14,154 nucleotides of DNA from a virus (taxonomy: Duplodnaviria > Heunggongvirae > Uroviricota > Caudoviricetes): IMG/VR virus record IMGVR_UViG_3300022594_000256, positions 67,368-81,521 of that record. One strand, given 5' to 3'. Position 1 is the stretch's first letter; the number at the start of each line of letters is the position of its first letter. The position numbers and the translations under genes are program-made. This document shows, one piece after another, positions 1 to 12,621 of the stretch. A model generated the notes under the pieces. That model worked only from the letters and a program-made list of their open reading frames with translations, made no database searches and was not told the DNA's origin.

Positions 1-454
1 TTATAGTATCATCTAAGTCAGCATAGGCAAGAAGGTTATTATTCCAACTTGTTCTAGAACCTTTAGTTCCTTTTACTCCACGCAAATATAAAATGTCATT
101 ACGACTTGGAACTTGAGGACTGTCAACATGCCAATCAAATGTATCTTTATCGCCAGCCATACCAGGCTTGCCATTTCTTAATTCAGCAGTAACTCTACAC
201 AATAACCCGTCTGAATCTATAGCATAGTCCGGAAACAACGGATTGTCTTTATCATACAACGGCGTAGGGTTTTTAAACATATGCAGTATTCTTAGCTCTT
301 CCTCAACCGTTAAGAACTGTTTTTTAAAAACAACTATTACATTAGTTGATATAAGTTTTGCTATTGCGTTTATGTCTTCCTGCGTACAAGTTTTTAAATC
401 AATATCAACAAGAGCAGTCCATCCATTGTTGTGTATGCTATAATTAAATGCCAT
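1..454 (-). CDS. TauD/TfdA-family Fe(II)/2-oxoglutarate dioxygenase, N-terminal 151 aa (runs off the left edge; absent from the ORF track)
   Basis: Manual translation from ATG at 454 is open to the edge: MAFNYSIHNNGWTALVDIDLKTCTQEDINAIAKLISTNVIVVFKKQFLTVEEELRILHMFKNP...DTFDWHVDSPQVPSRNDILYLRGVKGTKGSRTSWNNNLLAYADLDDTI. It has TauD-like segments: VVFKKQFLTVEE (cf. VLVFRxQxLTxEQ), WHVD (HxD iron ligands) and GSRTSW...AYADL (cf. GGDTxF...AYxxL). The start overlaps the end of the upstream ORF by 11 nt. Confidence 0.85.
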   Translation of the reverse strand, partial: MAFNYSIHNNGWTALVDIDLKTCTQEDINAIAKLISTNVIVVFKKQFLTVEEELRILHMFKNPTPLYDKDNPLFPDYAIDSDGLLCRVTAELRNGKPGMAGDKDTFDWHVDSPQVPSRNDILYLRGVKGTKGSRTSWNNNLLAYADLDDTI

Positions 455-1139
455 GGCCTTTTTCAATTAATTTTTGAATGATTAAATTAGCCAACTCTAC
501 ATGAAAATCTTCGCCGTAGTGTATTTCTAATTTTGTGCATTTCTTTTCTATAGCCCATTCTTCGGCATTTTTATAATTTCCAAAAGTTAACACACTATCT
601 CCAGTTGGAACAAATGACGGCTCGGTACTTTTTAAGTACAGTGGTATTTGTAAAAAATCAGCAGCATGTAACTGACATATTGCATCTACACAAAACATTA
701 ATTGTTTAAGATTATTACGCGGTTGATATATTTCTACAAATGTTCTGTTAACTTCTGATTCAAAGTTATTAGTACCTGCTTGAAAATATTTGTCCTTATC
801 ACAACCTATACCACCATCTGGGCAATATAATTCTGTAAGATCATATCGACCCCAAGAAAACAATACTAAACTATCTGGATGCTCTTGTACTGCTTCCACT
901 AATAATCGTAAGCTTCGATCGTTACTACCGCCAGACATTGCATAATTGTAACAAGGTACATTTAAATAGTCCGCTACCTTTTGCGGAAATGTTAATAACT
1001 TACCAGGAGCATCTAATTCTTCAATAGTTTTTTTTCCTGTTAAGTATGCCCTAGTTCTAAATTGTTCTAATGGTCCAGCTAACTCGCATCCTGCCGGAGT
1101 GCTATCACCAAACGCTAATACTGATTTGATTGTAGACAT
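444..1139 (-). CDS. SGNH/GDSL-like hydrolase (esterase/acyl-transfer fold)
   Basis: Block I LAFGDS with a catalytic-type Ser, block II NYAMSGGSNDRSLR, and C-terminal HYGEDFHVELANLI resembling the HPxxxGHxxxA block. Starts 1 nt after the radical SAM stop. Confidence 0.7.
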   Translation of the reverse strand: MSTIKSVLAFGDSTPAGCELAGPLEQFRTRAYLTGKKTIEELDAPGKLLTFPQKVADYLNVPCYNYAMSGGSNDRSLRLLVEAVQEHPDSLVLFSWGRYDLTELYCPDGGIGCDKDKYFQAGTNNFESEVNRTFVEIYQPRNNLKQLMFCVDAICQLHAADFLQIPLYLKSTEPSFVPTGDSVLTFGNYKNAEEWAIEKKCTKLEIHYGEDFHVELANLIIQKLIEKGHGI

Positions 1140-1140
1140 G

Positions 1141-2655
1141 TTAATTCCTTTGATTGATTTTTTTCAAAATATATTCATTTAAAAACTTTTTATGCGCTTC
1201 CCATGCGTTTAATACGGCAGAGTATTTAGATACGTTAATAGTAGATTTTAAATCAACACTTTTAGTCCCAGCAGCATATTCGGGAAAACTTAGTTGCCAG
1301 CAATCTACATTAAAATCATTAACTACATAATCTTGTAAATCGCCAGATATTCTTTTTGCATCGAAGATGTTCATTGTATCGTGTTCCCATAATACTTCGT
1401 TAGTGGAATAGTTACCTTCCTTCCAATTAAACAATGTAGTAGGGTCACCAAAGAAATCAACTTGACTTGTGCCCATTTTTCTAAGACCATATTTTTGTAA
1501 ATTACGAGCCATTTTACTAACGTTGGTATGATCCTTTTCACGATCGTCTTCTAAGTTTTCAACGATTAACGGAAACATTACTAGAGATTCTGTAATCCAG
1601 TTTTCCTTTAACCATTTCATATTATCGTGCCATTCTTGTTCAACACTATATGGCAACCCTACTATGAAACTTATTGTTCCTCTGTAGGTCTTACCCTGTT
1701 GCTTAAAATAGTCCTTAGTATCCAGCACTAGCTGTTTTACTTTATCCGGGTGCAGTCCCTTGCCTATTATCTTTCCACTTTGATGATTAAAAGTTTCAAT
1801 GCCGTAGTATTGACCTCCAAAGTTCATCCTAGCAAGTTCTTCTATCATTGATCTATTTTGAAATAGATCTGCTCGAATAAATCCGCTAAAGAAAGGATCA
1901 AAGTCTAACTTTTCTACAACATCGGCAAACTTAGAAATTTTTTCTACACGATCATTAAATGTTTCGTCGGCTACGTAGTATCGATCAATACCAAAATTAT
2001 CGTAGTTATATTTCATTTCGTATTCGAAACTTTCAGCAGATCTAGAAGTATCTTCTTTTAAACCTAGAACAGGAAAATTACAGAACGCACACGAAAATTT
2101 ACATCCTCTAGAAAATTCAACTGTTAACCATTCAAATGGTTCTAAGAAATCTCTCTTCTCCATAATGACAGAGTAGTCACCTAAATTAAATGACGGATAA
2201 GCATGTATAGCCTTAATAACTTTTTTCTGTCCAAAGAATGCAGGTTCAAAAATAAGCCCTGATGTAGAGTTCCCTGCAAGAGCCTTAGCTACGGCTAGCA
2301 TAGCTTCTTCTCCGTAACTGTCTACCCATATATCTATATTTTGTGCGGCACTGTGTAATACATTCTGTCCACCTATTACAATTTTAATATGCGGGTATTT
2401 TATTTTTAACCATGCAGTAAAATTAGTTAATGTATCGTTCCAATAGGAAAAGAATGTGCTAAAACCAAAAAATATTGTTTTGCTAGTAACTGACTGTTGC
2501 GTAAACTCTTTTAATTGTTCTAAGGGCCAATGGGCTGCAAAATCAACTACTTCTACATCCATTTCATTTTTTCTTAGATAGGTAGCTATCCTATGAGCTC
2601 CGCTACTGCGTTCCCAAGGATAGTTTCTAGAGGAAAAGATTAAAGCGTGATTCAT
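1141..2655 (-). CDS. Cobalamin (B12)-binding-domain radical SAM enzyme (class B methyltransferase-like)
   Basis: CxxxCxxC motif SRGCKFSCAFCNF. The N-terminal B12-binding Rossmann-like region has SGAHRIATYLR..DVEVVDF, GFSTFF and IVIGG. Core motifs include YVADETFN, GIETFN and ISFIVGLP. 504 aa. Confidence 0.9.
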   Translation of the reverse strand: MNHALIFSSRNYPWERSSGAHRIATYLRKNEMDVEVVDFAAHWPLEQLKEFTQQSVTSKTIFFGFSTFFSYWNDTLTNFTAWLKIKYPHIKIVIGGQNVLHSAAQNIDIWVDSYGEEAMLAVAKALAGNSTSGLIFEPAFFGQKKVIKAIHAYPSFNLGDYSVIMEKRDFLEPFEWLTVEFSRGCKFSCAFCNFPVLGLKEDTSRSAESFEYEMKYNYDNFGIDRYYVADETFNDRVEKISKFADVVEKLDFDPFFSGFIRADLFQNRSMIEELARMNFGGQYYGIETFNHQSGKIIGKGLHPDKVKQLVLDTKDYFKQQGKTYRGTISFIVGLPYSVEQEWHDNMKWLKENWITESLVMFPLIVENLEDDREKDHTNVSKMARNLQKYGLRKMGTSQVDFFGDPTTLFNWKEGNYSTNEVLWEHDTMNIFDAKRISGDLQDYVVNDFNVDCWQLSFPEYAAGTKSVDLKSTINVSKYSAVLNAWEAHKKFLNEYILKKINQRN

Positions 2656-2656
2656 A

Positions 2657-3226
2657 TTATTTTAAAAAATTTTCTAATGGATAGTCGAGATCAAATCCTA
2701 TAGTGGCTGTTAATCTTGGCTCAGACAAATCGGGATTAGTATAGATACCGTGAGCAGTCTTTGTATGGAATACAAAAGGTGCATTAGTTTCTACGTTAGC
2801 AATTTCAATTAGAGGATACTTGTCTTCTATTGTGTAATAAGGATTTCCTTCAGAAGTAAATTCTTCAGTAATTTTATTGCTATTTAAATCAAAAAATTTA
2901 GTAGACGACCCTTGACAGCTATGCACGGGCCATAATATACGATAGTCTAACACACCATGATCAACATGGACTCCACCTGAGAATTTAGGTGGAGTATAGA
3001 ATATTGCAACCATAACAATACGTGCAGGAATTATTTGCTTAGTAGCTAGTTCTAATTCGGGCACATTGTTTAATACATGATCTAAATCTAACGTAACCCA
3101 ACGAACATGATCTTCATTAAGAATATCTGTATGTTTTAAAACATATTGATAGAGTTTTTCACTAACTATCTCATGATTGTTAATATTTAGATAACTGTAG
3201 ATTTTAGGGGCATTATTCGTTGTCAA
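2657..3226 (-). CDS. Fe(II)/2OG-dependent oxygenase-like (DSBH/cupin fold) protein
   Basis: HxD in GVHVDH, distal His in TAHGIY and a C-terminal Arg strand PRLTATIGF. The TTG start has a GAGGT SD-like motif 6 nt upstream and overlaps the previous ORF by 14 nt. Confidence 0.7.
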   Translation of the reverse strand: MTTNNAPKIYSYLNINNHEIVSEKLYQYVLKHTDILNEDHVRWVTLDLDHVLNNVPELELATKQIIPARIVMVAIFYTPPKFSGGVHVDHGVLDYRILWPVHSCQGSSTKFFDLNSNKITEEFTSEGNPYYTIEDKYPLIEIANVETNAPFVFHTKTAHGIYTNPDLSEPRLTATIGFDLDYPLENFLK

Positions 3227-3851
3227 GCAAATACCTCATATCTCCCACACCGGCAATTCCGCCTACTAAAAAAATTCTCATAGTTTCTAAATTCTCAACA
3301 CTATGTATAGAATCAAAAGACATCCAATACCAGTTGTCTTCTTCGAGCGATGCTTCGGCTTGAGGTTCAATTTTACTATACGGAATAGCACAGTAGTCTA
3401 TTATTTCTAAATTTGTAAATTCTTCTTTAGGTTTGTACCATACTGTCTTTGTATCTTTACCGCCAGACTTTAACAGATATTGGAAACCGTTTCTTCTTCT
3501 ATTAACATCATCTAGATGCGGAGCACAATAAGGACCGCCTTCTACAAATAAGAATCCGTAGTATTCAAAAACATTTGTGATATTATGATTTTTTTCTTTA
3601 AAAAAATTTGAAACTTTTTGTTCTAACTCGGGGGACATTGCCATTGCACTAACACCTCCCGACTTTTCATAAAAAAGCATATCTTCGTTTTCCATGTGAT
3701 TGATAGCATCTTTATTTTCAGTTTCAAATCGTCTATGATACAATATTCTGTTTTGTCTTTGTGTTTCAAAAAGCTGCATTGCATTTTCTAAGCACTCTTG
3801 TTTTAGTTCTTCTGATAGGCAAGGCATAGCTATCATATTTTTATAATACAT
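3213..3851 (-). CDS. Fe(II)/2OG-dependent oxygenase-like (DSBH) protein
   Basis: HxD in CAPHLDD, followed by GFQYLLKSGG..TVWY. Distal His in DSIHSVENL and an Arg strand RIFLV. AAGGA SD upstream of the ATG. Confidence 0.7.
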   Translation of the reverse strand: MYYKNMIAMPCLSEELKQECLENAMQLFETQRQNRILYHRRFETENKDAINHMENEDMLFYEKSGGVSAMAMSPELEQKVSNFFKEKNHNITNVFEYYGFLFVEGGPYCAPHLDDVNRRRNGFQYLLKSGGKDTKTVWYKPKEEFTNLEIIDYCAIPYSKIEPQAEASLEEDNWYWMSFDSIHSVENLETMRIFLVGGIAGVGDMRYLLDNE

Positions 3852-3864
3852 AAAATTTCCTTAA

Positions 3865-4644
3865 TTATTTGCTATCGTAGCCTTCTACATCGATTTGTTT
3901 TCTAAATTCATCTGTGAATCGGCCATTAACACGAATTGTATATGTAGGGCGATTCACAGATTCGCCGCCGTGCCAATCTCTTTCGTCCCACCATGCGACT
4001 CTAGTTTCGATATATACTTTTTCTTTAGTTTCAGGATTTATAATATAGAATGGTCTATCACAGTCTGTTTTGATGTGAATGAATTCTGTAATTTGTCCAG
4101 ATAATTGTTCTTCTGGAATTTCAGGATCAAATATTCCTGTAACAGGATCTTCTGGATCGTGATGCTCCCAAGGAATTCCAGTAGCATCTAATGCCATTAT
4201 TGTTGCACTATATAAACTTTTAAAAATGCCAGCAGTTTGTAAACTTTGAATCCACTCAACTAATTTAGGAAAATGTAAACCTACTTCGCCAACACCTTTG
4301 TGTTTATAGTTCTCATCTAGTACTTTATAAACTATGTAGTGATCGTATGCGTGAAGTGAAAATTTCAAATAGGTAGTTAGTTGGTTATAAGTTAAGTCTT
4401 TACCGGCAATCTTTAATGGATCGTCTTCTGGCAACGATTTCCAATAGTTATAAATTTGTGATAGTGGTTTAATTTGTACACCTTGTGCGTGTGGATGTAC
4501 AGTTCCGGGATGATATACTTGTAGACCATAAATTGCAAGTTGATTTGCAGTTGCCATTCCTCTACATATTTCTGGATGCAGAGAATCAAAAACAGTTAAG
4601 TCTATGTGTTTTTGTAAGTCTATAAAGAGTCGATTTCTAATCAT
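3865..4644 (-). CDS. Fe(II)/2OG-dependent oxygenase-like protein (loosely Asp/Asn beta-hydroxylase-like C-terminal domain)
   Basis: HxD in WEHHDP, distal His in DWHGGE and an Arg strand YTIRVNG. First gene of the enzyme operon, with no SD upstream. Confidence 0.6.
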   Translation of the reverse strand: MIRNRLFIDLQKHIDLTVFDSLHPEICRGMATANQLAIYGLQVYHPGTVHPHAQGVQIKPLSQIYNYWKSLPEDDPLKIAGKDLTYNQLTTYLKFSLHAYDHYIVYKVLDENYKHKGVGEVGLHFPKLVEWIQSLQTAGIFKSLYSATIMALDATGIPWEHHDPEDPVTGIFDPEIPEEQLSGQITEFIHIKTDCDRPFYIINPETKEKVYIETRVAWWDERDWHGGESVNRPTYTIRVNGRFTDEFRKQIDVEGYDSK

Positions 4645-4675
4645 GACAATATTTATAAATTGCCATGATTAGAAA
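4634..4675 (-). repeat. Inverted repeat/hairpin with 17-bp stem and 8-nt loop, covering the start codon at 4644
   Basis: Minus strand reads TTTCTAATCATG-G-CAAT [TTATAAAT] ATTG-T-CATGATTAGAAA, i.e. 12 perfect bp, one G-U and 4 bp. Confidence 0.9.
4650..4657 (-). promoter_or_regulatory. T4-type late promoter motif TATAAATA
   Basis: Exact match to the T4 gp55 late consensus, 5 nt upstream of the ATG at 4644, mostly within the hairpin loop. Confidence 0.6.
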
Positions 4676-4682
4676 CTAGTGA

Positions 4683-5807
4683 TTATGGTCCAGTGAATGA
4701 TACCCAGCTAGTACCGTTATAACCCATAAAGTGATTTGTAGTAGAATTGAAAACAATCATGCCAGCCTCTGGTGCTGGATAACCATTTATTTGAGATGTT
4801 GAATAACTTGAAGCTTGGAAAATAGGAGCTCGGAAAGCACCCTTTGAATTAAATGTACATGTATTCAAACCGCCATTATTGTTATTGGTATTTAAATATA
4901 ATGTTGCTCCAGGATTCGAATCAGTCATTGTTGCCGTAGCTTCTAATGAACTTGCAATACCAGAAGTTTGGATATAACCACCGCCGTGATATCCGCCCAT
5001 ACTTAAATTCATTAACCAGTCACCCGGTTGACTATTTGTCGGAGAAGCTATTGTTCCTCTTGAGGAAAAGATATTAAACTGTGGAGTGCTTCCAGGAGTT
5101 CCATCAGCAGATACACCTCTAACCTGTGCAATTTGTTGTGCATTATTTTCAACGTACAATGAACCATTAGAAACAGATAATGTATTGTTAGTAAAAGATA
5201 AATTACTAGCAGTTACTGTAGTAGATGTAACAGTACCAGTAATGTTAATGTTTCCACTTCCAGTAACGTTATGTCCGTTTAATCCTAGGTTAGCACCCAA
5301 TAACGGATTACCGTCTTGACTAATAGCAGTAATTCCTTCAGGAGGTGTAGCCCAACTTAAATTTCCAGAACCGTCAGTTTTAAGATATTGATTAGAATGC
5401 CCAGATTGGCTAGGCAATGTTGTGCCACCACCGCCGCCTGTTACTGTAGCAGTGATTCTATGATCAACATCATCGTATAAAAATGTGATTCCAGTGTTAT
5501 AAGGATTACCGTTTGTTAAAGCCGTAGCAACTGCTGCTTGTGCTCTTGCAGGGGTAAAATACTGATTAGTTGTGCCTTCATTTAAACTATCGCTATTTGT
5601 AGAAGCTAAATGTAAATCTAATTTACCAGTACTTTGATTGTAGTTTACACCACTACCGCCAAGTTGAGAAGCAATATCAATACCACCTGCTGTGATACCA
5701 TCGCCTACGTAAAGTTTGTGACCGTTAGTGGTCCAAATTAATTCTCCAGCCGCAAACGTAATACCGCCGCGTTGTGATTCTGTTCCTCTTCTAATTTTGA
5801 GAGCCAT
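4683..5807 (-). CDS. Virion fibre/tail-fibre-like structural protein with Mtd_N-like N-terminal module
   Basis: The N-terminus LKIRRGTESQR..FAAGELIWTTNGHKLYVGDG matches the major tropism determinant N-terminal/hyaluronidase-N pattern. Common phage fibre motifs follow: SDSLNEGTTNQYFTPARA, LPSQSGHSNQYLKTDGSGNLSW, DGNPLLGANLGLNG, and C-terminal GMIVFNSTTNHFMGYNGTSW. G/S/T/N-rich, with a GGAG SD. Confidence 0.8.
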   Translation of the reverse strand: MALKIRRGTESQRGGITFAAGELIWTTNGHKLYVGDGITAGGIDIASQLGGSGVNYNQSTGKLDLHLASTNSDSLNEGTTNQYFTPARAQAAVATALTNGNPYNTGITFLYDDVDHRITATVTGGGGGTTLPSQSGHSNQYLKTDGSGNLSWATPPEGITAISQDGNPLLGANLGLNGHNVTGSGNINITGTVTSTTVTASNLSFTNNTLSVSNGSLYVENNAQQIAQVRGVSADGTPGSTPQFNIFSSRGTIASPTNSQPGDWLMNLSMGGYHGGGYIQTSGIASSLEATATMTDSNPGATLYLNTNNNNGGLNTCTFNSKGAFRAPIFQASSYSTSQINGYPAPEAGMIVFNSTTNHFMGYNGTSWVSFTGP

Positions 5808-5851: not shown

Positions 5852-5860
5852 GTATTTAGC
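5852..5860 (-). promoter_or_regulatory. Possible late promoter (GCTAAATAC) for the fibre gene
   Basis: TAAATA core lies between the upstream terminator and the fibre start. It matches only 6 of 8 positions of TATAAATA and the DNA is AT-rich, so support is weak. Confidence 0.35.
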
Positions 5861-5882
5861 GAAAAGAAAAGATAGCACAGCC

Positions 5883-5911
5883 AAAGAAAAAGGGCCCTTA
5901 CGAGCCCTTTT
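5883..5911 (-). terminator. Intrinsic terminator closing the rIIA-rIIB-kinase unit
   Basis: Minus strand AAAAGGGCTC-GTAA-GGGCCCTTTTTCTTT: GC-rich stem, GNRA loop and U-tract, 15 nt after the kinase stop. Confidence 0.9.
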
Positions 5912-5926
5912 AAAGTGCGTATTTTA

Positions 5927-6391
5927 TTACGCTGCGTTCCAGATTTCCTTAAAACCTTCTTCTTCAGTAGGCATAACGAAGCCATTAATCATAGAGCGCA
6001 TAACATGATCTGGAATGGTCTTTCCAGGGCGTCCAGCTAATCTGCGTGTTAGCTCTTCCTTTTCAGGAGTTGCAAAAACAATGGCGATCGCATGATAGTT
6101 TGGGAGCATGTTAAACTTACGTTTACGACTAGCTACTGTAGTACTAGTTTGGTCCCAAATGATATCCAGGCCGTTAGCTTTGCAGATCTCGACTTGGTTA
6201 GCCATCAGTTTTACAGCAATGGGCATGTATTCATCAAACACTTCAGAGTAAGTTTTGCCTTGTTTTGCAGCGTATTCTTCTACAAAATGGTCAGTACTTA
6301 CTACTGGAATGTCCTTAGCCCATTCCTGATTTTTAATCCAGGTAGATTTCCCACTACCTGGAACACCAACTAATACATACAGCTTATTCAT
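5927..6391 (-). CDS. P-loop kinase, AAA_33 / T4 polynucleotide-kinase-like kinase domain (no phosphatase domain)
   Basis: Walker A GVPGSGKST, then VVSTD, IIWDQTS..SRKRK and lid motif RRLAGR. 154 aa. Confidence 0.8.
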   Translation of the reverse strand: MNKLYVLVGVPGSGKSTWIKNQEWAKDIPVVSTDHFVEEYAAKQGKTYSEVFDEYMPIAVKLMANQVEICKANGLDIIWDQTSTTVASRKRKFNMLPNYHAIAIVFATPEKEELTRRLAGRPGKTIPDHVMRSMINGFVMPTEEEGFKEIWNAA

Positions 6392-6392
6392 A

Positions 6393-7238
6393 TTAAGGAT
6401 TATCTGAACTTGGTTGATTTGCAGCGTGTGCAGCCAATGCAGCAGCTACAGCAGCTTCAACCGCAGCTTTAATAGTTGCAGCGTCTACACCGTTAACTGC
6501 GGCAGATTGTTGAACTGGAGCAATGAACGCATCTGCTGCTTCTTTGTTAATTTCTTCAATAACTTCGTAGCGGCAAGCACGACCCTTTGTTGAATGATAG
6601 TCAGCTGGAATGCTAACAACATCACGTGGGTTGATCTTAAGGATAACTGTACGGCTATCGCTTCCACCGAAGTGTTTCAAATAGTCCTTAGAACAGAAGT
6701 GCAAACCAGTTGAGCAAGTGCGGTTAGCATCGTCATCAACTTCGTTACGTTCCATTTCAACAACAGTACCTACGCTATTATCCATAGTACCACTGTGGAT
6801 ATCTTTGTAGTCATTGCGAATTTTCTTGTAAGCCAAGAAGTGACCATCTGCCGTAATTGGCAAGTCGCCTTTTTCCAAGAAGCTGTACAATTCGTCAACA
6901 GCACGTTTGCTTGGGTTCTGCATCAAGTTTTCCATGAAGTTAACCATTGGTTCAACAGGGAAACCTTCTTGATACATCTCAACAAACTTGCCTGCCAAGT
7001 AGTTGTGGAACTCTTTACCTTTCCAGAACAACTTGTCGCCTTGGACTTCAACGTTACCTTGACCGTAGTTAAGGATAACTTTTTTAGGTTCAACTAGATC
7101 CTGTACAGAATCCCAGTCGTTATTTTTAATAGCGTCTTTGATCTTGTCATAGGAAATATGAGTCGAACCAATAGTGTGGCTGTTATTGCCAATTACAATA
7201 ACAATGTTTTTGCCTTGAATCAAATATGGGAATGCCAT
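6393..7238 (-). CDS. rIIB: rIIB-like protein
   Basis: Conserved rIIB core LPITADGHFLAYK, GTVVEMERNEVDDD..TCSTGLHFCS and KINPRDVVSIP.DY..TKGRACRYEV. Directly downstream of rIIA. Confidence 0.9.
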   Translation of the reverse strand: MAFPYLIQGKNIVIVIGNNSHTIGSTHISYDKIKDAIKNNDWDSVQDLVEPKKVILNYGQGNVEVQGDKLFWKGKEFHNYLAGKFVEMYQEGFPVEPMVNFMENLMQNPSKRAVDELYSFLEKGDLPITADGHFLAYKKIRNDYKDIHSGTMDNSVGTVVEMERNEVDDDANRTCSTGLHFCSKDYLKHFGGSDSRTVILKINPRDVVSIPADYHSTKGRACRYEVIEEINKEAADAFIAPVQQSAAVNGVDAATIKAAVEAAVAAALAAHAANQPSSDNP

Positions 7239-7239
7239 T

Positions 7240-9414
7240 TTAGATGCCTTTCGATTGATCGATTAAATTGATATACTCTGCTACCGCTTCGTCTTCACCG
7301 TACCGGATGCAATTAATCAGCGGATAGCGAGAGATAATTGCATTTGCTTTGTCGCGGAACGCTTGAATTGCTGCCTCTGGGTCAAACACAGTTTTAGGAC
7401 TGTAGCGTTTGATCAATCGGTTAATTGCATAACGATCCGCATCTTTGTCACCAGCATCCTTGAAAGTAGAAACCAACTCAGCGTATGGGCTCTTGCTATC
7501 AACTTTGCTAACAATGCCACTATTATAGCGCAAGAACGTGAAGTTGTCAAGCTCTTTTGCAATAAAGTTGCTAATTAATTTAGCATCAATTTTCTTCAAA
7601 CTCTTGGAAATGTGATCTTCAATGTTGATCCAGTTCTTTTGAGTTTTGATAAACTCAATGTCGCCTTTACGTACACCGTAAATCGAACCAACATTAAGAG
7701 CAGCAATACCGCAGTTTTTCAAATCACGATACAGTTCTTTAATGTCGCCCAGATTGTGAGCACTTTCGAGATTGAAACCACTCAGCGGCATGTAGTAATA
7801 AGTTTGCTTTGCATCAAAGCTATCAGCTTTGCCAGCATCACGCCACACCATGTCTTTCTGACGATAGTAGCCACCATAACCTTTTTCTTCAAGGCGCATA
7901 ATAGTAACGTTCTTGCCCATTGCGCTGCCAGTTTGCTCACGTTCTTTTTCACGCAAGCTGCTAGCACGTAGAATTGCCTTAGTAGGAGGATTACTAATAG
8001 CTTTCATAAATGCACGTACATTCATTGGCTTAGTTTTATCAATTGCGTTAAGAACATACACAATATCAGTAGCACGACCGTAGCCTGTACCTTTCTGCTC
8101 TTCACGGAAGTGGAACTTAGAACGCTCAAGCGCACCAATCTTTGTATCATTGACTACGAACCAAGTAGTGTTGCTAATACGGAATTCGTATGTCTGTGCG
8201 TAATTAGTTTGACCATTTGCATCCTTGTACGCTTCACTGTAGCTTTTCATGTTGCTAACGGTGTTGTTACCTGGAGACTTTTCAAAAGCATTAAGATTAA
8301 TGTTCATGTCAGCCAGTGCTGCAACAGTCAGGCGTGGCGCCTTAGTACGCATACCGTATTGATTGTCAACCAAGTCAAAGTTATTGTCAGCAGCATACTT
8401 TTGAACAGCAGCAGCCCATAGTTGACTACGGCCCTTGTCTGCAAGGTAAATTGCACGTTGCCACTTGTTTTTAATAGCATCTGCTTCTTCTGCAATCTTG
8501 TCAGCAAGAATAGCATTAACCTCTTCCAACTTACGTTTAATGCTGTCAATCGTTTGTGGAATGTAGCTCAAGCCTTCGCGTGATGCTTGGAAGTCCAATT
8601 CACCAATAGCAAATTCCATAACCAGGTTACAATCCAGCAAGTCCTTCAATTCACCCAAGTTCTTTTCAACGTTAGGAATTTGAATTGGGTAAGCAATATT
8701 ACCCATGATTGCAGTGCTGTGATAACCGTGACGGCGAGCAGCGTGTACGCCAGGAATGATGTCTTTGGTTTCGTATTCTACTTCATAGAAGTCAAAGTTG
8801 CTAACACCACTGACTACAGGACGATGTTTAAACCACTTGTAAACAGAGTGTGCTTCGTCGTGAAATTTGCTGAAATCCCAACGATCTTCAACTGAAAACT
8901 TAACTTCAACGCCGTTAGGTTCATCAGTTGTTTCTTCCATCATCAACGCAATTGACGGGACTCCTTGGTCGTTGATGAATGCTGAGTAGATGCGCTTCGA
9001 GTTATCTTGAATCGCGGTAACCGTAAAGTTATCAGTATAAGCAAAGGGAGACTTACTGCCCAAACCAAGAGCACCAATAAATTCATTGGAAGTTGTTTTA
9101 GTACTCTCAAAGTAAGTTGTGTAAATGTTTTTAACTTGTTCATGATTAAGTCCTGTGCCGTAGTCGCGGATTGAAAACCAAGGTTCTAATTGATTTGGGA
9201 GATGCACATCATATGGAGTGTCTACTTTGCCAGCAGCAACATGACTGTCAATTGCATTGCATGACAGTTCACGGATGATGGCTTTAATCTTGTTAGCATA
9301 CAAACCGCTAGACAGAATGTTAAATGCCTTAGCAGAATTACGAATACGGAACTCACCAATCTCACTAACGTTGCTCATGATAGCTTCGTTTTGTGGTGCA
9401 TTGTTGATAATCAT
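7240..9414 (-). CDS. rIIA: rIIA-like protein (N-terminal GHKL/HATPase domain)
   Basis: GHKL motifs IIRELSCNAIDSH, IRDYGTGL and IGALGLGSKSPFAY. 724 aa, paired with rIIB. Confidence 0.9.
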   Translation of the reverse strand: MIINNAPQNEAIMSNVSEIGEFRIRNSAKAFNILSSGLYANKIKAIIRELSCNAIDSHVAAGKVDTPYDVHLPNQLEPWFSIRDYGTGLNHEQVKNIYTTYFESTKTTSNEFIGALGLGSKSPFAYTDNFTVTAIQDNSKRIYSAFINDQGVPSIALMMEETTDEPNGVEVKFSVEDRWDFSKFHDEAHSVYKWFKHRPVVSGVSNFDFYEVEYETKDIIPGVHAARRHGYHSTAIMGNIAYPIQIPNVEKNLGELKDLLDCNLVMEFAIGELDFQASREGLSYIPQTIDSIKRKLEEVNAILADKIAEEADAIKNKWQRAIYLADKGRSQLWAAAVQKYAADNNFDLVDNQYGMRTKAPRLTVAALADMNINLNAFEKSPGNNTVSNMKSYSEAYKDANGQTNYAQTYEFRISNTTWFVVNDTKIGALERSKFHFREEQKGTGYGRATDIVYVLNAIDKTKPMNVRAFMKAISNPPTKAILRASSLREKEREQTGSAMGKNVTIMRLEEKGYGGYYRQKDMVWRDAGKADSFDAKQTYYYMPLSGFNLESAHNLGDIKELYRDLKNCGIAALNVGSIYGVRKGDIEFIKTQKNWINIEDHISKSLKKIDAKLISNFIAKELDNFTFLRYNSGIVSKVDSKSPYAELVSTFKDAGDKDADRYAINRLIKRYSPKTVFDPEAAIQAFRDKANAIISRYPLINCIRYGEDEAVAEYINLIDQSKGI

Positions 9415-9455: not shown

Positions 9456-9484
9456 ATTATACTGCCAAAATTCCAGCTTGTCAA
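9456..9484 (-). promoter_or_regulatory. Sigma70-type promoter P1 for rIIA-rIIB-kinase
   Basis: TTGACA-agctggaattttggcag(17)-TATAAT, a perfect consensus. Confidence 0.9.
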
Positions 9485-9776: not shown

Positions 9777-9805
9777 ATTATACAGCCAAAATGTTCATTT
9801 GTCAA
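9777..9805 (-). promoter_or_regulatory. Sigma70-type promoter P2
   Basis: TTGACA-aatgaacattttggctg(17)-TATAAT. The -35 box contains the TGA stop of the 57-aa ORF. Confidence 0.9.
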
Positions 9806-10067: not shown

Positions 10068-11144
10068 TTAAAATGCATCCCAGTACTTGTAAGTTTGTTC
10101 TTTAACTTTAGTAAGAACAAGTGTAGTACCGTCTGTATTTGAAAATACGTACTTAGTACCGTTGTCGTCGATTTTCTTAAGTTGGTTAGGTTCAAAAACC
10201 TTTGATTCCCAATCCCAGATTTCTTCGCCGTCTTCGTCTTTCTCGAACGCCTTGTAGTTAATGTGGACACGCTTGTTAAGCGGATTGCCCTGCCATTCTT
10301 TTTCGTCGAAATTGGTTTCAGCCATTTCTTCGCCATTGATCAGCAGCTTAATCTTGTAGCGTGACTCGTTACCGTACTCAGGCTTAGTATTAAGCATTTG
10401 CATAGCTTCTTGTGGAGTTTCGTTGAAACGGTTCATTTCTTCAACAAGTGCCTTGAGCATGTCAAAGTTGAACTGATCAAACGTACCAGCAATACCTACA
10501 ATCTTTTCGATGTGTTCTTTAGCCTTAAGATTGTCTTCGCAGTATTCACGGATGAAATCTGCTTCAAGGCCCTTGTACTCTAGTGAGTAGAACACACGAC
10601 CTGGACGATTACGCATGTGTGAATTAACACGCCACTTGTCGTTACAAGTAAGGACAAACAACTTTTTAGTTGGGTACACACCGTCAAGCAAGGTCAACAT
10701 CAACTCTTGATCGTGTTCGTCATAAACTTTTTCAAACTCGTCAAACACAACAATCAATGGTTGCTCGATAGATTGAATGAAAGCATTAAATGCTTCACCA
10801 CACCAGGGTTGATTAATAACAATGGTAGGAATGCCTTGCTCGTAGCCTTTTACAGAAAGCATCTTAGCTAGCAAAGTTTTACCAGATCCCTTTTCGCCGG
10901 TAAGCATCACACCGGTAGTAGTAGGGCGATCGTTAAATGCGTAAAGAATACGATCAGCACGTTTGTTAGTGTCACCGTAAATTTTACCACGGATTTCAAA
11001 GTTATCAATTTGTTCGAGATACATTTCACCAGTCATCTCATTCTTCTTGATAACATAGTTACCTGCAGGCAATGCTTCGTGCAAGTCCATAGCTTCTTTT
11101 TTAGAAACTTTGTACATATTGCCCATTTTCAGAAAGTAAGTCAT
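10068..11144 (-). CDS. Single-domain AAA+ ATPase
   Basis: Walker A GEKGSGKT, Walker B IVVFDEFEK, sensor-1 LTCN and arginine finger NRPGR. Confidence 0.85.
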   Translation of the reverse strand: MTYFLKMGNMYKVSKKEAMDLHEALPAGNYVIKKNEMTGEMYLEQIDNFEIRGKIYGDTNKRADRILYAFNDRPTTTGVMLTGEKGSGKTLLAKMLSVKGYEQGIPTIVINQPWCGEAFNAFIQSIEQPLIVVFDEFEKVYDEHDQELMLTLLDGVYPTKKLFVLTCNDKWRVNSHMRNRPGRVFYSLEYKGLEADFIREYCEDNLKAKEHIEKIVGIAGTFDQFNFDMLKALVEEMNRFNETPQEAMQMLNTKPEYGNESRYKIKLLINGEEMAETNFDEKEWQGNPLNKRVHINYKAFEKDEDGEEIWDWESKVFEPNQLKKIDDNGTKYVFSNTDGTTLVLTKVKEQTYKYWDAF

Positions 11145-11180
11145 TTTTCGCTCTTTCAGTTGCGTGTTGTTGAAGTTTAC

Positions 11181-11209
11181 ATTATACGATCAAACAGTAG
11201 GGCTGTCAA
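11181..11209 (-). promoter_or_regulatory. Sigma70-type promoter P4 for the AAA ATPase
   Basis: TTGACA-gccctactgtttgatcg(17)-TATAAT, a perfect consensus. Confidence 0.9.
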
Positions 11210-11220
11210 GCCCTACCATT
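11193..11220 (-). terminator. Hairpin after NAMPT (possible terminator) whose loop is the P4 -35 hexamer
   Basis: AATG-GTAGGGC-[TTGACA]-GCCCTAC-TGTT: 7 perfect bp extendable to 11 with two G-U pairs. The U-tract is weak (TGTTTG). Confidence 0.55.
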
Positions 11221-11223
11221 CAA

Positions 11224-12621
11224 TTATTTGCGAGCATTTGCTCGAACTTGCTCAAAAGTAATTTCTTGAACAAGTTTACCGTCTCGGTATACTTCTTCTA
11301 GCATAGAAGTGAATGGACCAAATCCTTTGTCAAACCAACCCTTAGGTTGATCAACAGCAGTTACCCACTCACTACCTGCTTTCCAAAGTTCAATACGTCC
11401 TGCTTTAGATTTCTTACCAGGATCGGTAATAGGATCTTTAACAACATCACGGTCCTCGCCGTTTACAGTAATGCTAGAGCATTTCATAGCAAACTTTTGA
11501 GTATCGCGATCCAACTGTTGAAGCAATGCGCCACCCATACCAAATGCAATGTTATCTGCACTGTAACCGTACACTTGGAATGAACCAAGGATCATACGGA
11601 TAGTGTGTTCGTTAACACCGTCACCTTGGATAAGACGAACGTTGTTTAGGACTTTAAAGCCTTTGCTGTTTACAGTTGATCCAAATTGCTTGTCTAGAAT
11701 TTGAACCAGCTTACGACAGACAATGTCAGGATCACCACTATCTGGACGAATAACAACGGTGGCACCACTATCAATAACCTGTTGACGAAGTTCTTCGCCC
11801 CAAAGTTTAGATGCGGCGTTAAAGACATCATAAGAATCAGACACGACAGCGACAATAGCGCCAGGCTTTGCAAATTGAGTGAGCATGTTATCATAGGCTT
11901 TTACTTCGTTGTCACGACCCCAACTTGTGATGGTGCTGTGTTCTGCGGCAGGAATTGAAAAGCCGCTAACACCAGCGTTATAGAACTCACGAGCATACAA
12001 GATACCGGTAACAGTATCAGTGCCCATGAAGTTAACGAGGTGGGCCGCGCCGCCAATGCCAGCGGACTCAAGGGAACTAACACCGCGAGCACCAAAGTCG
12101 TGTAACTTAAAATCGATAGTAGATGGGTCACCTGTCTTCTCCAATGCGTCAAGAATGACTTGTTTAATTTTCCAGCTCTGTGTTGCTACAGTAGTAGGAT
12201 ACCAAATTGCACGGAGCAAGGCTGTTTCCAACCATGTAGTTAACCAGAAGCATTCTGGATCTGTGTTTTCAATTGTTGCAAGCACCTGCTTGACAGGTAC
12301 AACTGTTCCTTCGGGGACGGCTCGGATAACAACTGGGAGGTATCCATTGTGCTTGTCAAGAATGTACTGCCATCCTGCGCGGTTGAAAGGCTCACCGTGT
12401 GCGGTAAGGATTTCATCAGCCACATCAATGTCTTGTTGTGTGATGGGCTCGAGTAAGTACTCTTTAATGAACGCTTGGAGGCCGAAGAATACAGTCTGAT
12501 CGTAACGTCCGCCTCTTGATTCAATGTAAGAATAAACACCTGTAGTTCCTGCTGGGTATTGTTTGAACATGCTAACTTTGTAGCTGTCAGTGTTGAGAAT
12601 AATATTTTTTGCTAATTTCAT
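11224..12621 (-). CDS. nadV: Nicotinamide phosphoribosyltransferase (NAMPT)
   Basis: Motifs TDSYK, YSYIESRGG, HDFGARG, PAAEHS, VVSDSYD, IRPDSGDP, IQGDG, FGMGGALLQ and KKSKAGR. 465 aa. Confidence 0.95.
   Translation of the reverse strand: MKLAKNIILNTDSYKVSMFKQYPAGTTGVYSYIESRGGRYDQTVFFGLQAFIKEYLLEPITQQDIDVADEILTAHGEPFNRAGWQYILDKHNGYLPVVIRAVPEGTVVPVKQVLATIENTDPECFWLTTWLETALLRAIWYPTTVATQSWKIKQVILDALEKTGDPSTIDFKLHDFGARGVSSLESAGIGGAAHLVNFMGTDTVTGILYAREFYNAGVSGFSIPAAEHSTITSWGRDNEVKAYDNMLTQFAKPGAIVAVVSDSYDVFNAASKLWGEELRQQVIDSGATVVIRPDSGDPDIVCRKLVQILDKQFGSTVNSKGFKVLNNVRLIQGDGVNEHTIRMILGSFQVYGYSADNIAFGMGGALLQQLDRDTQKFAMKCSSITVNGEDRDVVKDPITDPGKKSKAGRIELWKAGSEWVTAVDQPKGWFDKGFGPFTSMLEEVYRDGKLVQEITFEQVRANARK

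Follow-up and report, generated by a model that had tools for sequence, protein, structure and literature searches.

The window, as the whole stretch of DNA analysed here is called, comprised 14,154 nucleotides at the right end (67368-81521) of an 81.5-kb viral contig from the IMG/VR database (record IMGVR_UViG_3300022594_000256; CheckV completeness 22%), and its source was an uncultured freshwater jumbo phage. The left part of the window carried six genes, g079 to g074, that lay directly downstream of the fibre-like gene g080 and encoded oxygenases, a B12-type radical S-adenosylmethionine (SAM) enzyme and an SGNH hydrolase. We found that these genes formed the right end of a ~28-kb island (contig ~44.3-72.0 kb) with at least 15 radical SAM genes and at least 11 oxygenases. 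In related phages, islands of this kind were linked to the fibre gene in a strongly polar manner, and g079, the first enzyme gene after the fibre in the window, had a conserved late-promoter/hairpin element at its start codon. Our favoured reading, which we put forward tentatively, was that the enzymes perform late tailoring of a virion substrate associated with the fibre.

The linkage between the fibre gene and the island was counted from both ends. In loci recovered by way of g079, a co-oriented island enzyme gene was present within 120 nucleotides downstream of 16 out of the 27 distinct fibres with the MxLxIRRGT anchor. The second count began from the fibre alone, to remove ascertainment bias, and required at least 1.5 kb of downstream sequence. 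In this case, island-family genes were present within 6 kb downstream of 40 of the 55 distinct fibres (15 directly adjacent), and upstream of only 1 of 60. Thus, the synteny with fibre genes that an initial annotation of the window had suggested looking for was indeed present and strongly polar. An earlier impression from a small sample (loci L006 and L023) that the fibre link was not conserved was overturned by these larger samples. The first gene after the fibre was most commonly g079, and elsewhere it was g075, g071, g072, g063, g057 or g054 or, on the other strand, g067, g068 or g076. The fibre itself varied as well: the N-terminal MxLxIRRGT anchor (Mtd_N) was conserved among g080 homologues, the body and the tip were variable, and the C-terminal domain belonged to several unrelated types across relatives. 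Since both the first gene and the C-terminal type varied, it was the island as a whole that was linked to the fibre gene, and this link has outlasted thorough reshuffling of both. Sequence and profile searches of the PDB with g080 returned nothing usable. The third-position GC content of g080 (0.21) was similar to that of g075-g079 (0.21-0.28) and lower than that of the adjacent early genes at 5927-9414 (0.36-0.39). The giant fibre genes g003 and g004 had values of 0.23-0.26, like g080.

The second line of evidence came from the junction between the fibre gene and g079, where the start codon of g079 (4644-4642) was paired in a stable hairpin. The motif TATAAATA (4650-4657) was located in the loop, 5 nucleotides before the ATG, and the NATAAATA-N5-ATG spacing was kept before g079 orthologues in a dozen diverged phages. 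There were seven copies of ATAAATA on both strands of the AT-rich 81.5-kb contig, and six of them stood no more than 45 nucleotides upstream of gene starts (g002, g007, g010, g023, g046 and g079), compared with 0.18 expected. The motif appeared to be avoided elsewhere on the contig, as expected of a T4-type late promoter. Accordingly, the late-promoter motif claimed by the initial annotation was real, and its position was conserved. A start-codon hairpin with the motif in its loop was found in 7 of 11 related junctions that were folded (8 of 12 with the window's own), namely in L031, L036, L038, L043, L047, L050 and L051. The stem sequences differed among these junctions, the 3' arm contained the AUG, and the z-scores ranged from -2.7 to -7.4 including the window. 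A late promoter 5 nucleotides from the ATG would start the transcript at approximately the AUG, from which we infer that the late mRNA is leaderless. In transcripts reading through from the fibre gene, on the other hand, the g079 AUG would be sequestered in the hairpin. The copy of ATAAATA before g010 was also placed between inverted repeats, TCTCGTGC and GCACGAGA.

The surroundings of this junction suggested a division into an early and a late part. A variant of the motif, CTAAATA, preceded the fibre gene and, judging from its sequence, might act as a late-type promoter; the ACTAAATA variant was also found before g079 orthologues in L044-L046. A terminator-like hairpin was situated between the early rIIA-rIIB-kinase unit on one side and the fibre and enzyme genes on the other. 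Perfect 12/12 matches to the sigma-70 consensus (TTGACA-17-TATAAT) were present in the window at 9777-9805, 9456-9484 and 7522-7550 on the minus strand, two upstream of rIIA and one inside it, and nowhere else in the window. The predicted layout was, therefore, an early rIIA-rIIB-kinase unit, a terminator, and a putative late unit consisting of the fibre gene and eight enzyme genes (g079-g072). In the metatranscriptome run X14, assembled contigs covered parts of the cluster, and one of them bridged the fibre/g079 junction (4621-5094). This was a weak hint of transcription at most, as the RNA library possibly contained DNA and its patchy coverage could not rank genes.

The initial annotation described six co-oriented genes with junctions of 13, -14, 1, 1 and -11 nucleotides, and the list of open reading frames (ORFs) gave exactly these values. 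The -11 junction used the ATG at 454, which was also the start picked by independent gene calls on identical contigs; the TTG at 466 would change it to -23. The cluster ran beyond the left edge, as had been stated: the gene at the edge encoded a TauD protein and was followed by two more TauD paralogs, and further radical SAM genes were present on this flank. The idea of a dedicated six-gene pathway or operon was not upheld, since the six genes were the end of the island and not a self-contained unit. Besides the TauD paralogs, the part of the island left of the window encoded an AspH-family cupin (g071, Pfam-positive), a QueC-like PP-loop ATPase (g070), Zn-ribbon radical SAM enzymes (g065 and g066), a second B12-type radical SAM enzyme (g058), SPASM-type and N-terminal-twitch radical SAM enzymes (with g052 and g055 above the NF033640 cut-off), and the small cupins g057, g061, g063 and g063b. 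Both GC and third-position GC of the island were below those of the flanking early genes.

The composition of related islands was compared in 44 viral loci found via the g079 family. The commonest co-located families were g067, g071, g069, g063b, g068 and g065/66, which were present in 22-40 of the loci, with the first three reaching 34-40. The remaining genes between g079 and the TauD paralogs were scarce: g076 was found in five of the 44 loci, g075 in three, g078 in two, and g077, the rarest, in one. In close relatives, the order was fibre-g075-g079-TauD or fibre-g079-TauD, and another relative had the order g078-g077-g076-x-g075-g079-TauD. In six loci (L006-L011), including other genomic contexts, the cupin gene g078 immediately preceded a g076 homologue, and the stop and start codons of the two genes often overlapped. 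Among phages with g079 proteins 46-70% identical, this group of genes was present, absent or placed differently. Thus, g079 and the TauD genes were the core of the island, and g078-(g077)-g076-(g075) was an accessory cassette, inserted in the window at the boundary of g079 and g074. The unity of the six genes assumed at the beginning did not hold either, because the four cassette genes had no counterpart in most related islands. Since the block of B12 radical SAM, cupin and SGNH genes was a discrete cassette, natural pairs of phages with and without it exist for comparing virion chemistry.

The oxygenases were assigned by different kinds of evidence. The product of g074 has 279 amino acids from the ATG at 454 or 283 from the TTG at 466, and its gene ended at contig position 66982, left of the window. 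The full protein matched Pfam TauD above the cut-off (2.7e-18), and its HVD motif fell within the window part. It was the first of three tandem TauD paralogs (g074-g072) that were 42-54% identical, and the nearest solved structures were TfdA, TauD and RdpA. The proteins g078 and g079 had no match in Pfam, PHROG or NCBIfam, the Pfam scan of every g078-family member found nothing relevant, and PDB sequence and profile searches with g078 gave nothing usable. Their predicted structures were, however, clear. The AlphaFold2 (AF2) model of g078, built from an alignment of 27 homologues, had a mean predicted confidence (pLDDT) of 94.9. Foldseek matched it to FIH, NO66 and PHD2 (E 7e-6), and all of the top 50 matches found by VIA-align were oxygenases dependent on Fe(II) and 2-oxoglutarate (Fe/2OG), with Z up to 9.7. 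The model of g079 (34 homologues, pLDDT 91.6) matched PHD2-type prolyl hydroxylases in the PDB (E 4e-6). Its first match in the AlphaFold DB was an unnamed protein with a template-modelling (TM) score of 0.82 and 31% identity, followed by AspH-annotated entries. We concluded that g074, g078 and g079 belonged to the Fe/2OG oxygenase superfamily with the double-stranded beta-helix (DSBH) fold, the first by Pfam and the other two by predicted structure.

The residues expected at the active site supported this assignment. In the g078 family, H112, D114 and R192 were invariant and H183 was present in at least 90% of the members. In the g079 family, H161xD163, H190 and H225 were invariant, and R215 and R238 were conserved. 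The small protein g077 had an invariant H87xD89...H159...R171 set with the usual spacing in 16 homologues, and its nearest named Atlas clusters by language-model comparison were AspH and 2OG-FeII_Oxy_3 (0.90). The Pfam scan of every g077-family member and the sequence and profile searches of the PDB gave no support, and profile-profile comparison of g077 with g078, g079 and other island cupins found nothing. Hence, g077 was a probable Fe/2OG oxygenase, and the HxD...H triad and a basic residue ~10 positions beyond the distal His, expected to bind 2OG, were kept in g077, g078 and g079, for which turnover of 2OG is predicted. The statement that all six genes encode modifying enzymes stood as far as the enzyme classes could be assigned, with one of the four oxygenases, g077, being probable and motif-based. 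Compared with the AspH family (PF05118, including AspH and LpxO), g079 shared the DSBH fold with HxD...H and had AspH-annotated neighbours in the AlphaFold DB, and g071 was Pfam-positive; however, g079 itself had no Pfam match, and its closest structural neighbour was unnamed. The profile-profile links of g078 and g079 to the AspH-like g071 were weak (22% and 45% by hhalign, the latter over ~50 columns). The g079 family comprised 127 homologue clusters at 90% identity, all unnamed, and a paralog in the island, g063b, was 32% identical. A pattern-limited scan of 185,579 species genomes found no cellular relatives of g079.

The enzyme g076 was of the B12 type, a probable member of the class-B radical SAM proteins, which have a B12-binding domain. 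It matched Pfam Radical_SAM PF04055 above the cut-off (5.7e-11; 43.3 bits vs 29.5). The match to B12-binding PF02310 was below the cut-off (7.5e-4; 19.8 bits vs 32.1), with residues 19-122 covering positions 16-120 of 121, and the paralog g058, 41% identical to g076, showed the same sub-threshold picture. A PhpK-family model from NCBIfam was matched at 1.3e-12 over residues 19-351, spanning both domains. The C185x3C189x2C192 motif was invariant across 10 homologues, the most distant of them 33% identical. The protein did not belong to a characterised subfamily: its best NCBIfam match had 46.9 bits vs a cut-off of 600. No solved relative was found by a single-sequence search at E <=0.01, and the profile search of solved structures matched TokK weakly (E 9.5e-5). 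Thus, g076 was similar to the class-B radical SAM methylases (TokK, CysS, PhpK, GenK, Fom3, PoyC) in its CxxxCxxC core and in the placement of a putative B12-binding-type domain N-terminal to it. It differed from them in that its matches were far below the family cut-offs, it had a conserved C-terminal extension of its own (with a WEHDTMN motif) that matched nothing, and it had a private and constant cupin partner, g078. Two homologues were found in metagenome-assembled genomes (MAGs). The first (50% identity), on a Pseudomonadales contig (L024 3495-5018), stood alone between a MutY-type glycosylase and a transporter of the major facilitator superfamily (MFS) and could represent either a relative on the host side or an artefact of binning. 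The second, from Bdellovibrionales, was 27% identical and apparently split into two ORFs. Neither context was informative on function.

In polytheonamide and other proteusin maturation (PoyB/PoyC with PoyI), B12 radical SAM C-methylation and Fe/2OG hydroxylation act on one substrate. The initial annotation pointed to this pairing, which raised the improbable alternative that the island serves a classical proteusin-like pathway of a ribosomally synthesised and post-translationally modified peptide (RiPP), in which a small precursor encoded elsewhere would be methylated, hydroxylated and released as a toxin or a signal. Several radical SAM proteins of the island had SPASM or twitch domains and weak matches to RiPP maturases; however, every such match was far below the family cut-offs. 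Precursors were looked for in the own contig (22% of the genome) and in four related records, including a 331-kb relative that was 93% complete. No Nif11 precursor (PF07862) was found in these five records, and the positive control worked. The NHLP model (TIGR03793) had no match in the five records and none in the control genomes either, which made this search uninformative. The contig encoded neither Cys-rich nor repeat peptides, and the island had no small conserved ORF. The sole candidate, the 144-amino-acid minus-strand ORF g051, was spurious, being antisense over a methyltransferase-like gene. That gene, opposite g051 on the plus strand (contig 46192-46869, equal to L005 16192-16869), encoded a class-I SAM methyltransferase-like protein with VDIHGGWVG and IDIDP motifs. 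Moreover, the set of epimerase, N-methyltransferase and dehydratase known from proteusin maturation was not present here. The proteusin analogy was therefore unsupported.

The last enzyme of the cassette, g075, was an SGNH/GDSL-type hydrolase. Its own match to Lipase_GDSL PF00657 was below the cut-off (E 0.028; 15 bits vs 23.6), and the family was matched by 16 of its 34 relatives (best 2.6e-7); DUF6071 was also matched by 16. Block I (G11-D12-S13, with the nucleophile serine) and Block III (GGSN73) were recognised, and G11, S13 and N73 were at least 90% conserved in 34 homologues down to 21% identity. H213 was invariant and its acidic partner was D211, giving DxH instead of DxxH; the alternative E210 (ExxH) was not conserved. 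A PDB profile search yielded marginal TesA-type matches (E ~1). The family had 71 representative clusters in a library of 1.84 billion proteins. The positions of all these features are given in the table.

Table. Features of the window, with coordinates numbered from its first nucleotide
Feature	Position	Strand	Basis
g074, N-terminal part, TauD/TfdA-type Fe/2OG dioxygenase	1..466	-	Pfam TauD on the full protein
g075, SGNH/GDSL-type hydrolase, 231 amino acids	444..1139	-	Pfam matches of the family and conserved Blocks I and III
g076, class-B (putative B12-binding domain) radical SAM enzyme, 504 amino acids	1141..2655	-	Pfam, NCBIfam and motif
g077, probable small cupin-type Fe/2OG oxygenase, 189 amino acids, TTG start	2657..3226	-	Motif and language-model neighbours
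g078, DSBH Fe/2OG oxygenase, 212 amino acids	3213..3851	-	AF2 model and structural matches
g079, AspH-like DSBH oxygenase, 259 amino acids	3865..4644	-	AF2 model and structural matches
18-bp hairpin pairing the g079 start codon	4633..4676	-	Minimum free energy -22.4 kcal/mol, z -7.4
g080, fibre-like protein, 374 amino acids; right border of the island	4683..5807	-	Pfam Mtd_N (6e-7) and homologue alignment
CTAAATA, late-promoter-like variant 42 nucleotides before the fibre ATG, with a GGAG ribosome-binding site between	5853..5859	-	Sequence reading
Intrinsic-terminator-like hairpin after the AAA_33 kinase gene, 10-bp stem, GUAA loop, UUUUUCUUU tail	5882..5911	-	Centroid fold, z -3.4

SGNH enzymes commonly act on acyl groups of glycans, and TauD/TfdA-type enzymes resemble small-molecule dioxygenases. 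Both facts agreed with a second explanation, close to the second option of the initial annotation (a small metabolite) and in our view somewhat unlikely: the island would build or edit a small molecule or a sugar-type compound during infection, namely a secondary metabolite or groups that decorate the host envelope, on its lipopolysaccharide (LPS) or capsule. Such a product would, for example, block superinfection or help the infected cell compete, and the adjacency to the fibre would then reflect only a shared plastic region of host recognition. Several genes pointed in this direction. In a related 358-kb phage (GCA_902725345.1, locus L023), a class-III aminotransferase gene was found between the g077 and g076 homologues, and a NodU/CmcH-type carbamoyltransferase gene upstream in the same block; other relatives had O-methyltransferase-like genes and a weak match to glycosyltransferase family GT2. 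The carbamoyltransferase and aminotransferase genes of L023 were located at 6357-7838 and 10560-11714, and an IscA-like Fe-S protein was encoded at 10-336. The island of the window contained the PP-loop ATPase and g056 (297 amino acids, contig 51430-52323), which had no Pfam match and carried SLSKGLGLGWNRIG, the pyridoxal phosphate (PLP)-lysine motif of class I/II aminotransferases. The bacterial homologue of the B12 enzyme adjoined the MFS transporter mentioned above, and a similar cyanophage cluster was interpreted in this way by Iyer et al. (2021; PMC7824862, section 3.4.10). On the other side, no GT2 above the cut-off was found in the own contig and the four related records. No GT1 above the cut-off was present in the own contig or the 93%-complete relative, and the single GT1 of another relative was 14 kb from its island. 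No nonribosomal peptide synthetase, polyketide synthase or sugar-nucleotide genes were found among the island proteins scanned. In addition, a late-type promoter and a gene layout suited to co-transcription with the fibre fitted virion assembly better than early reprogramming of the host, and the strongly polar fibre linkage survived complete reshuffling of the island.

The QueC-like ATPase also agreed with a third explanation, namely that the enzymes hypermodify bases of the phage DNA after replication (thymidine or 7-deazaguanine type) as protection against restriction. Lee et al. are said to have reported in 2018 that some phage clusters for thymidine hypermodification contain radical SAM and PLP enzymes. 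Moreover, the AAA_33 kinase g081, conserved next to the fibre among related loci, could be likened to a 5-hydroxymethyldeoxyuridine (5-hmdU) DNA kinase. However, the QueC match was weak (32.8 bits on the C-terminal 60 residues), g081 was located upstream of the terminator, within the early rII unit, and late expression beside the fibre would not be expected of DNA protection. The ThyA-type hydroxymethylase (PF00303) and TGT/DpdA (PF01702) had no match in the five records, and the controls were positive in 10 of 14 and 14 of 14 genomes, respectively. As the own genome was incomplete, this lack of both enzymes holds for the 93%-complete relative only. Nucleobase hypermodification, the third option of the initial annotation, was thus disfavoured, and we regarded it as very improbable.

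Because the own contig and the 93%-complete relative yielded neither scaffold-building enzymes nor entry enzymes for DNA modification nor a Nif11 precursor, a pre-existing scaffold was the likeliest target. The choice was tilted towards a virion-associated one, the fibre or something attached to it, by the late-promoter motif and the polarity of the fibre linkage. From these observations we infer the following timing, substrate and chemistry for the late tailoring of the fibre-associated substrate. The enzymes would be made late, together with the fibre. The oxygenases would hydroxylate the substrate, the B12 enzyme would C-methylate it or carry out a related radical step (C-H functionalisation), and the SGNH hydrolase would trim acyl groups. 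The substrate would be tied to the host-recognition apparatus of the virion: either the fibre protein or a group that it carries. One more step of decoration would come with the cassette, and related phages would thus come to differ in their decoration as they gain or lose it. In a more specific and doubtful form of this proposal, maturation would be leaderless and protein-directed: late oxygenases and radical SAM enzymes would rewrite the receptor-binding fibre or the attached group by hydroxylation and C-methylation, and swappable cassettes like that of cupin, B12 radical SAM and SGNH genes would alter the decoration. If so, cassette swaps would change host recognition or resistance to host proteases, and this would be a new way to diversify the adsorption apparatus with the fibre gene unchanged.

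A number of points weighed against this proposal. The structural matches of the oxygenases (Z <=9.7, TM ~0.4-0.5) could not tell protein hydroxylases from small-molecule oxygenases, and the TauD/TfdA subgroup works mostly on small molecules. The carbamoyltransferase, class-III aminotransferase, methyltransferases and weak GT2 of the relatives were easier to reconcile with a small molecule or sugar as the target than with a protein. As for possible substrates, the 81.5-kb contig had no Nif11 precursor and no conserved Cys-rich or repeat tail, including tails of Cys-His-x-Ser or Asn-Cys repeats. The fibre may be a mere backbone gene beside a plastic region, and a single phage clade may account for all the loci, in which case common descent rather than selection could explain the conserved order. 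Additionally, within the island only the g079-g072 operon had the late motif, and the rest was without a recognised promoter. The predicted complex of g079 and g080 had a score of 0.00, which was uninformative either way. Decoration of virion proteins, the option preferred in the initial annotation, thus gained circumstantial support from the fibre synteny and the conserved late motif, but the substrate searches found no target.

Two described phage systems were comparable. The host recognition cluster (HRC) of T4-like pelagimyophages and cyanomyophages is a hypervariable island containing fibre genes, in which close relatives differ by radical SAM cassettes of unexplained function (Zaragoza-Solas et al. 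2020, PMC7029224). The present island was likewise large and non-syntenic, was situated beside a tail-fibre gene, contained enzymes unrelated to fibre structure, and gained or lost cassettes among relatives. It was, therefore, a hypervariable fibre-linked island of the HRC type. However, the HRC is embedded in the structural module, with VrlC and gp14 on either side, whereas the present island was located beside the early rIIA-rIIB-kinase unit. Glycosyltransferase and LPS genes dominate the HRC, whereas radical SAM enzymes and oxygenases dominated here; the near-complete relative had no GT1 or GT2, and the habitat was freshwater. The second system is the predicted sugar and amino-acid modification cluster of jumbo cyanophages such as S-SSM6a (Iyer, Anantharaman, Krishnan, Burroughs and Aravind 2021, PMC7824862, section 3.4.10). 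It has 8-12 genes, including a halogenase, a HemK-like methylase and HAD phosphatases, with no mention of radical SAM enzymes, and it was read by inference as serving capsule decoration or a secondary metabolite (PMC7824862). Several 2OG-Fe oxygenases and cupin-type DSBH enzymes were common to both, as were carbamoyltransferases (here in the 358-kb relative). The present island differed by its at least 15 radical SAM genes, including B12-type ones, by the polar fibre link and by the late promoter. Neither of the two systems has been studied experimentally (PMC7029224, PMC7824862), and B12 radical SAM enzymes, a conserved late-promoter/hairpin element and a quantified polar fibre linkage have not been reported for them. 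We agree with the initial annotation that no described function fits such a set of genes.

The island amounted to ~8% of a ~350-kb genome, which was a large investment in oxygen-dependent and radical enzymes. Should the fibre be the target, the phage would be using a new form of post-translational maturation for a virion protein; should it be a metabolite, the island would rank among the largest virus-encoded biosynthetic clusters.

The phage origin of the cluster, also claimed by the initial annotation, was confirmed by the rIIA and rIIB genes on the contig (rIIA matched the PHROG rIIA profile at 4e-128) and by the IMG/VR record. Every large ORF of the window was on the minus strand, and to the right of the six enzyme genes the order was fibre-like g080, AAA_33 P-loop kinase g081, rIIB and rIIA. 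At the protein level, an identical arrangement recurred in several samples, on at least 24 contigs of up to 345 kb, and the related phages had genomes of 331-358 kb. The nearest cultured phages were KVP40-like, with rIIA ~30% identical. A megablast search with the window against 50,697 phage records gave no match, and neither did tblastn searches of phage records with g076 (the same 50,697) and g080. Metagenome runs containing the window or a part of it came from nine studies (pond, freshwater and viral metagenomes), and at least half of the sampled words of the window were present in 12 runs from four studies; several studies contained the stretch in full. Islands of this type were widespread in pond and lake viromes.

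Some further observations concerned the rest of the contig and the relatives. An anticodon-less tRNA-like gene at the left border of the island (contig ~44181-44330; L005 14181-14330) was considered as a part of it and rejected, since it headed a divergent early operon on the minus strand. This gene had its own perfect TTGACA-17-TATAAT promoter and was without an ARAGORN call. Small cupins of the g063/g061 type (~170 amino acids, HxD...HxxxNxG) formed tandem arrays of up to six copies in relatives (L056 9308-13752; also L055, L059 and L061). A second and smaller radical SAM cluster (g010-g015) was found at contig 20705-28905, with low third-position GC and the late-promoter motif ahead of g010. 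It encoded a 672-amino-acid protein similar to B12 radical SAM enzymes (g012) and an N-terminal-twitch radical SAM relative (g015) that was 26-31% identical to g052 and g055.

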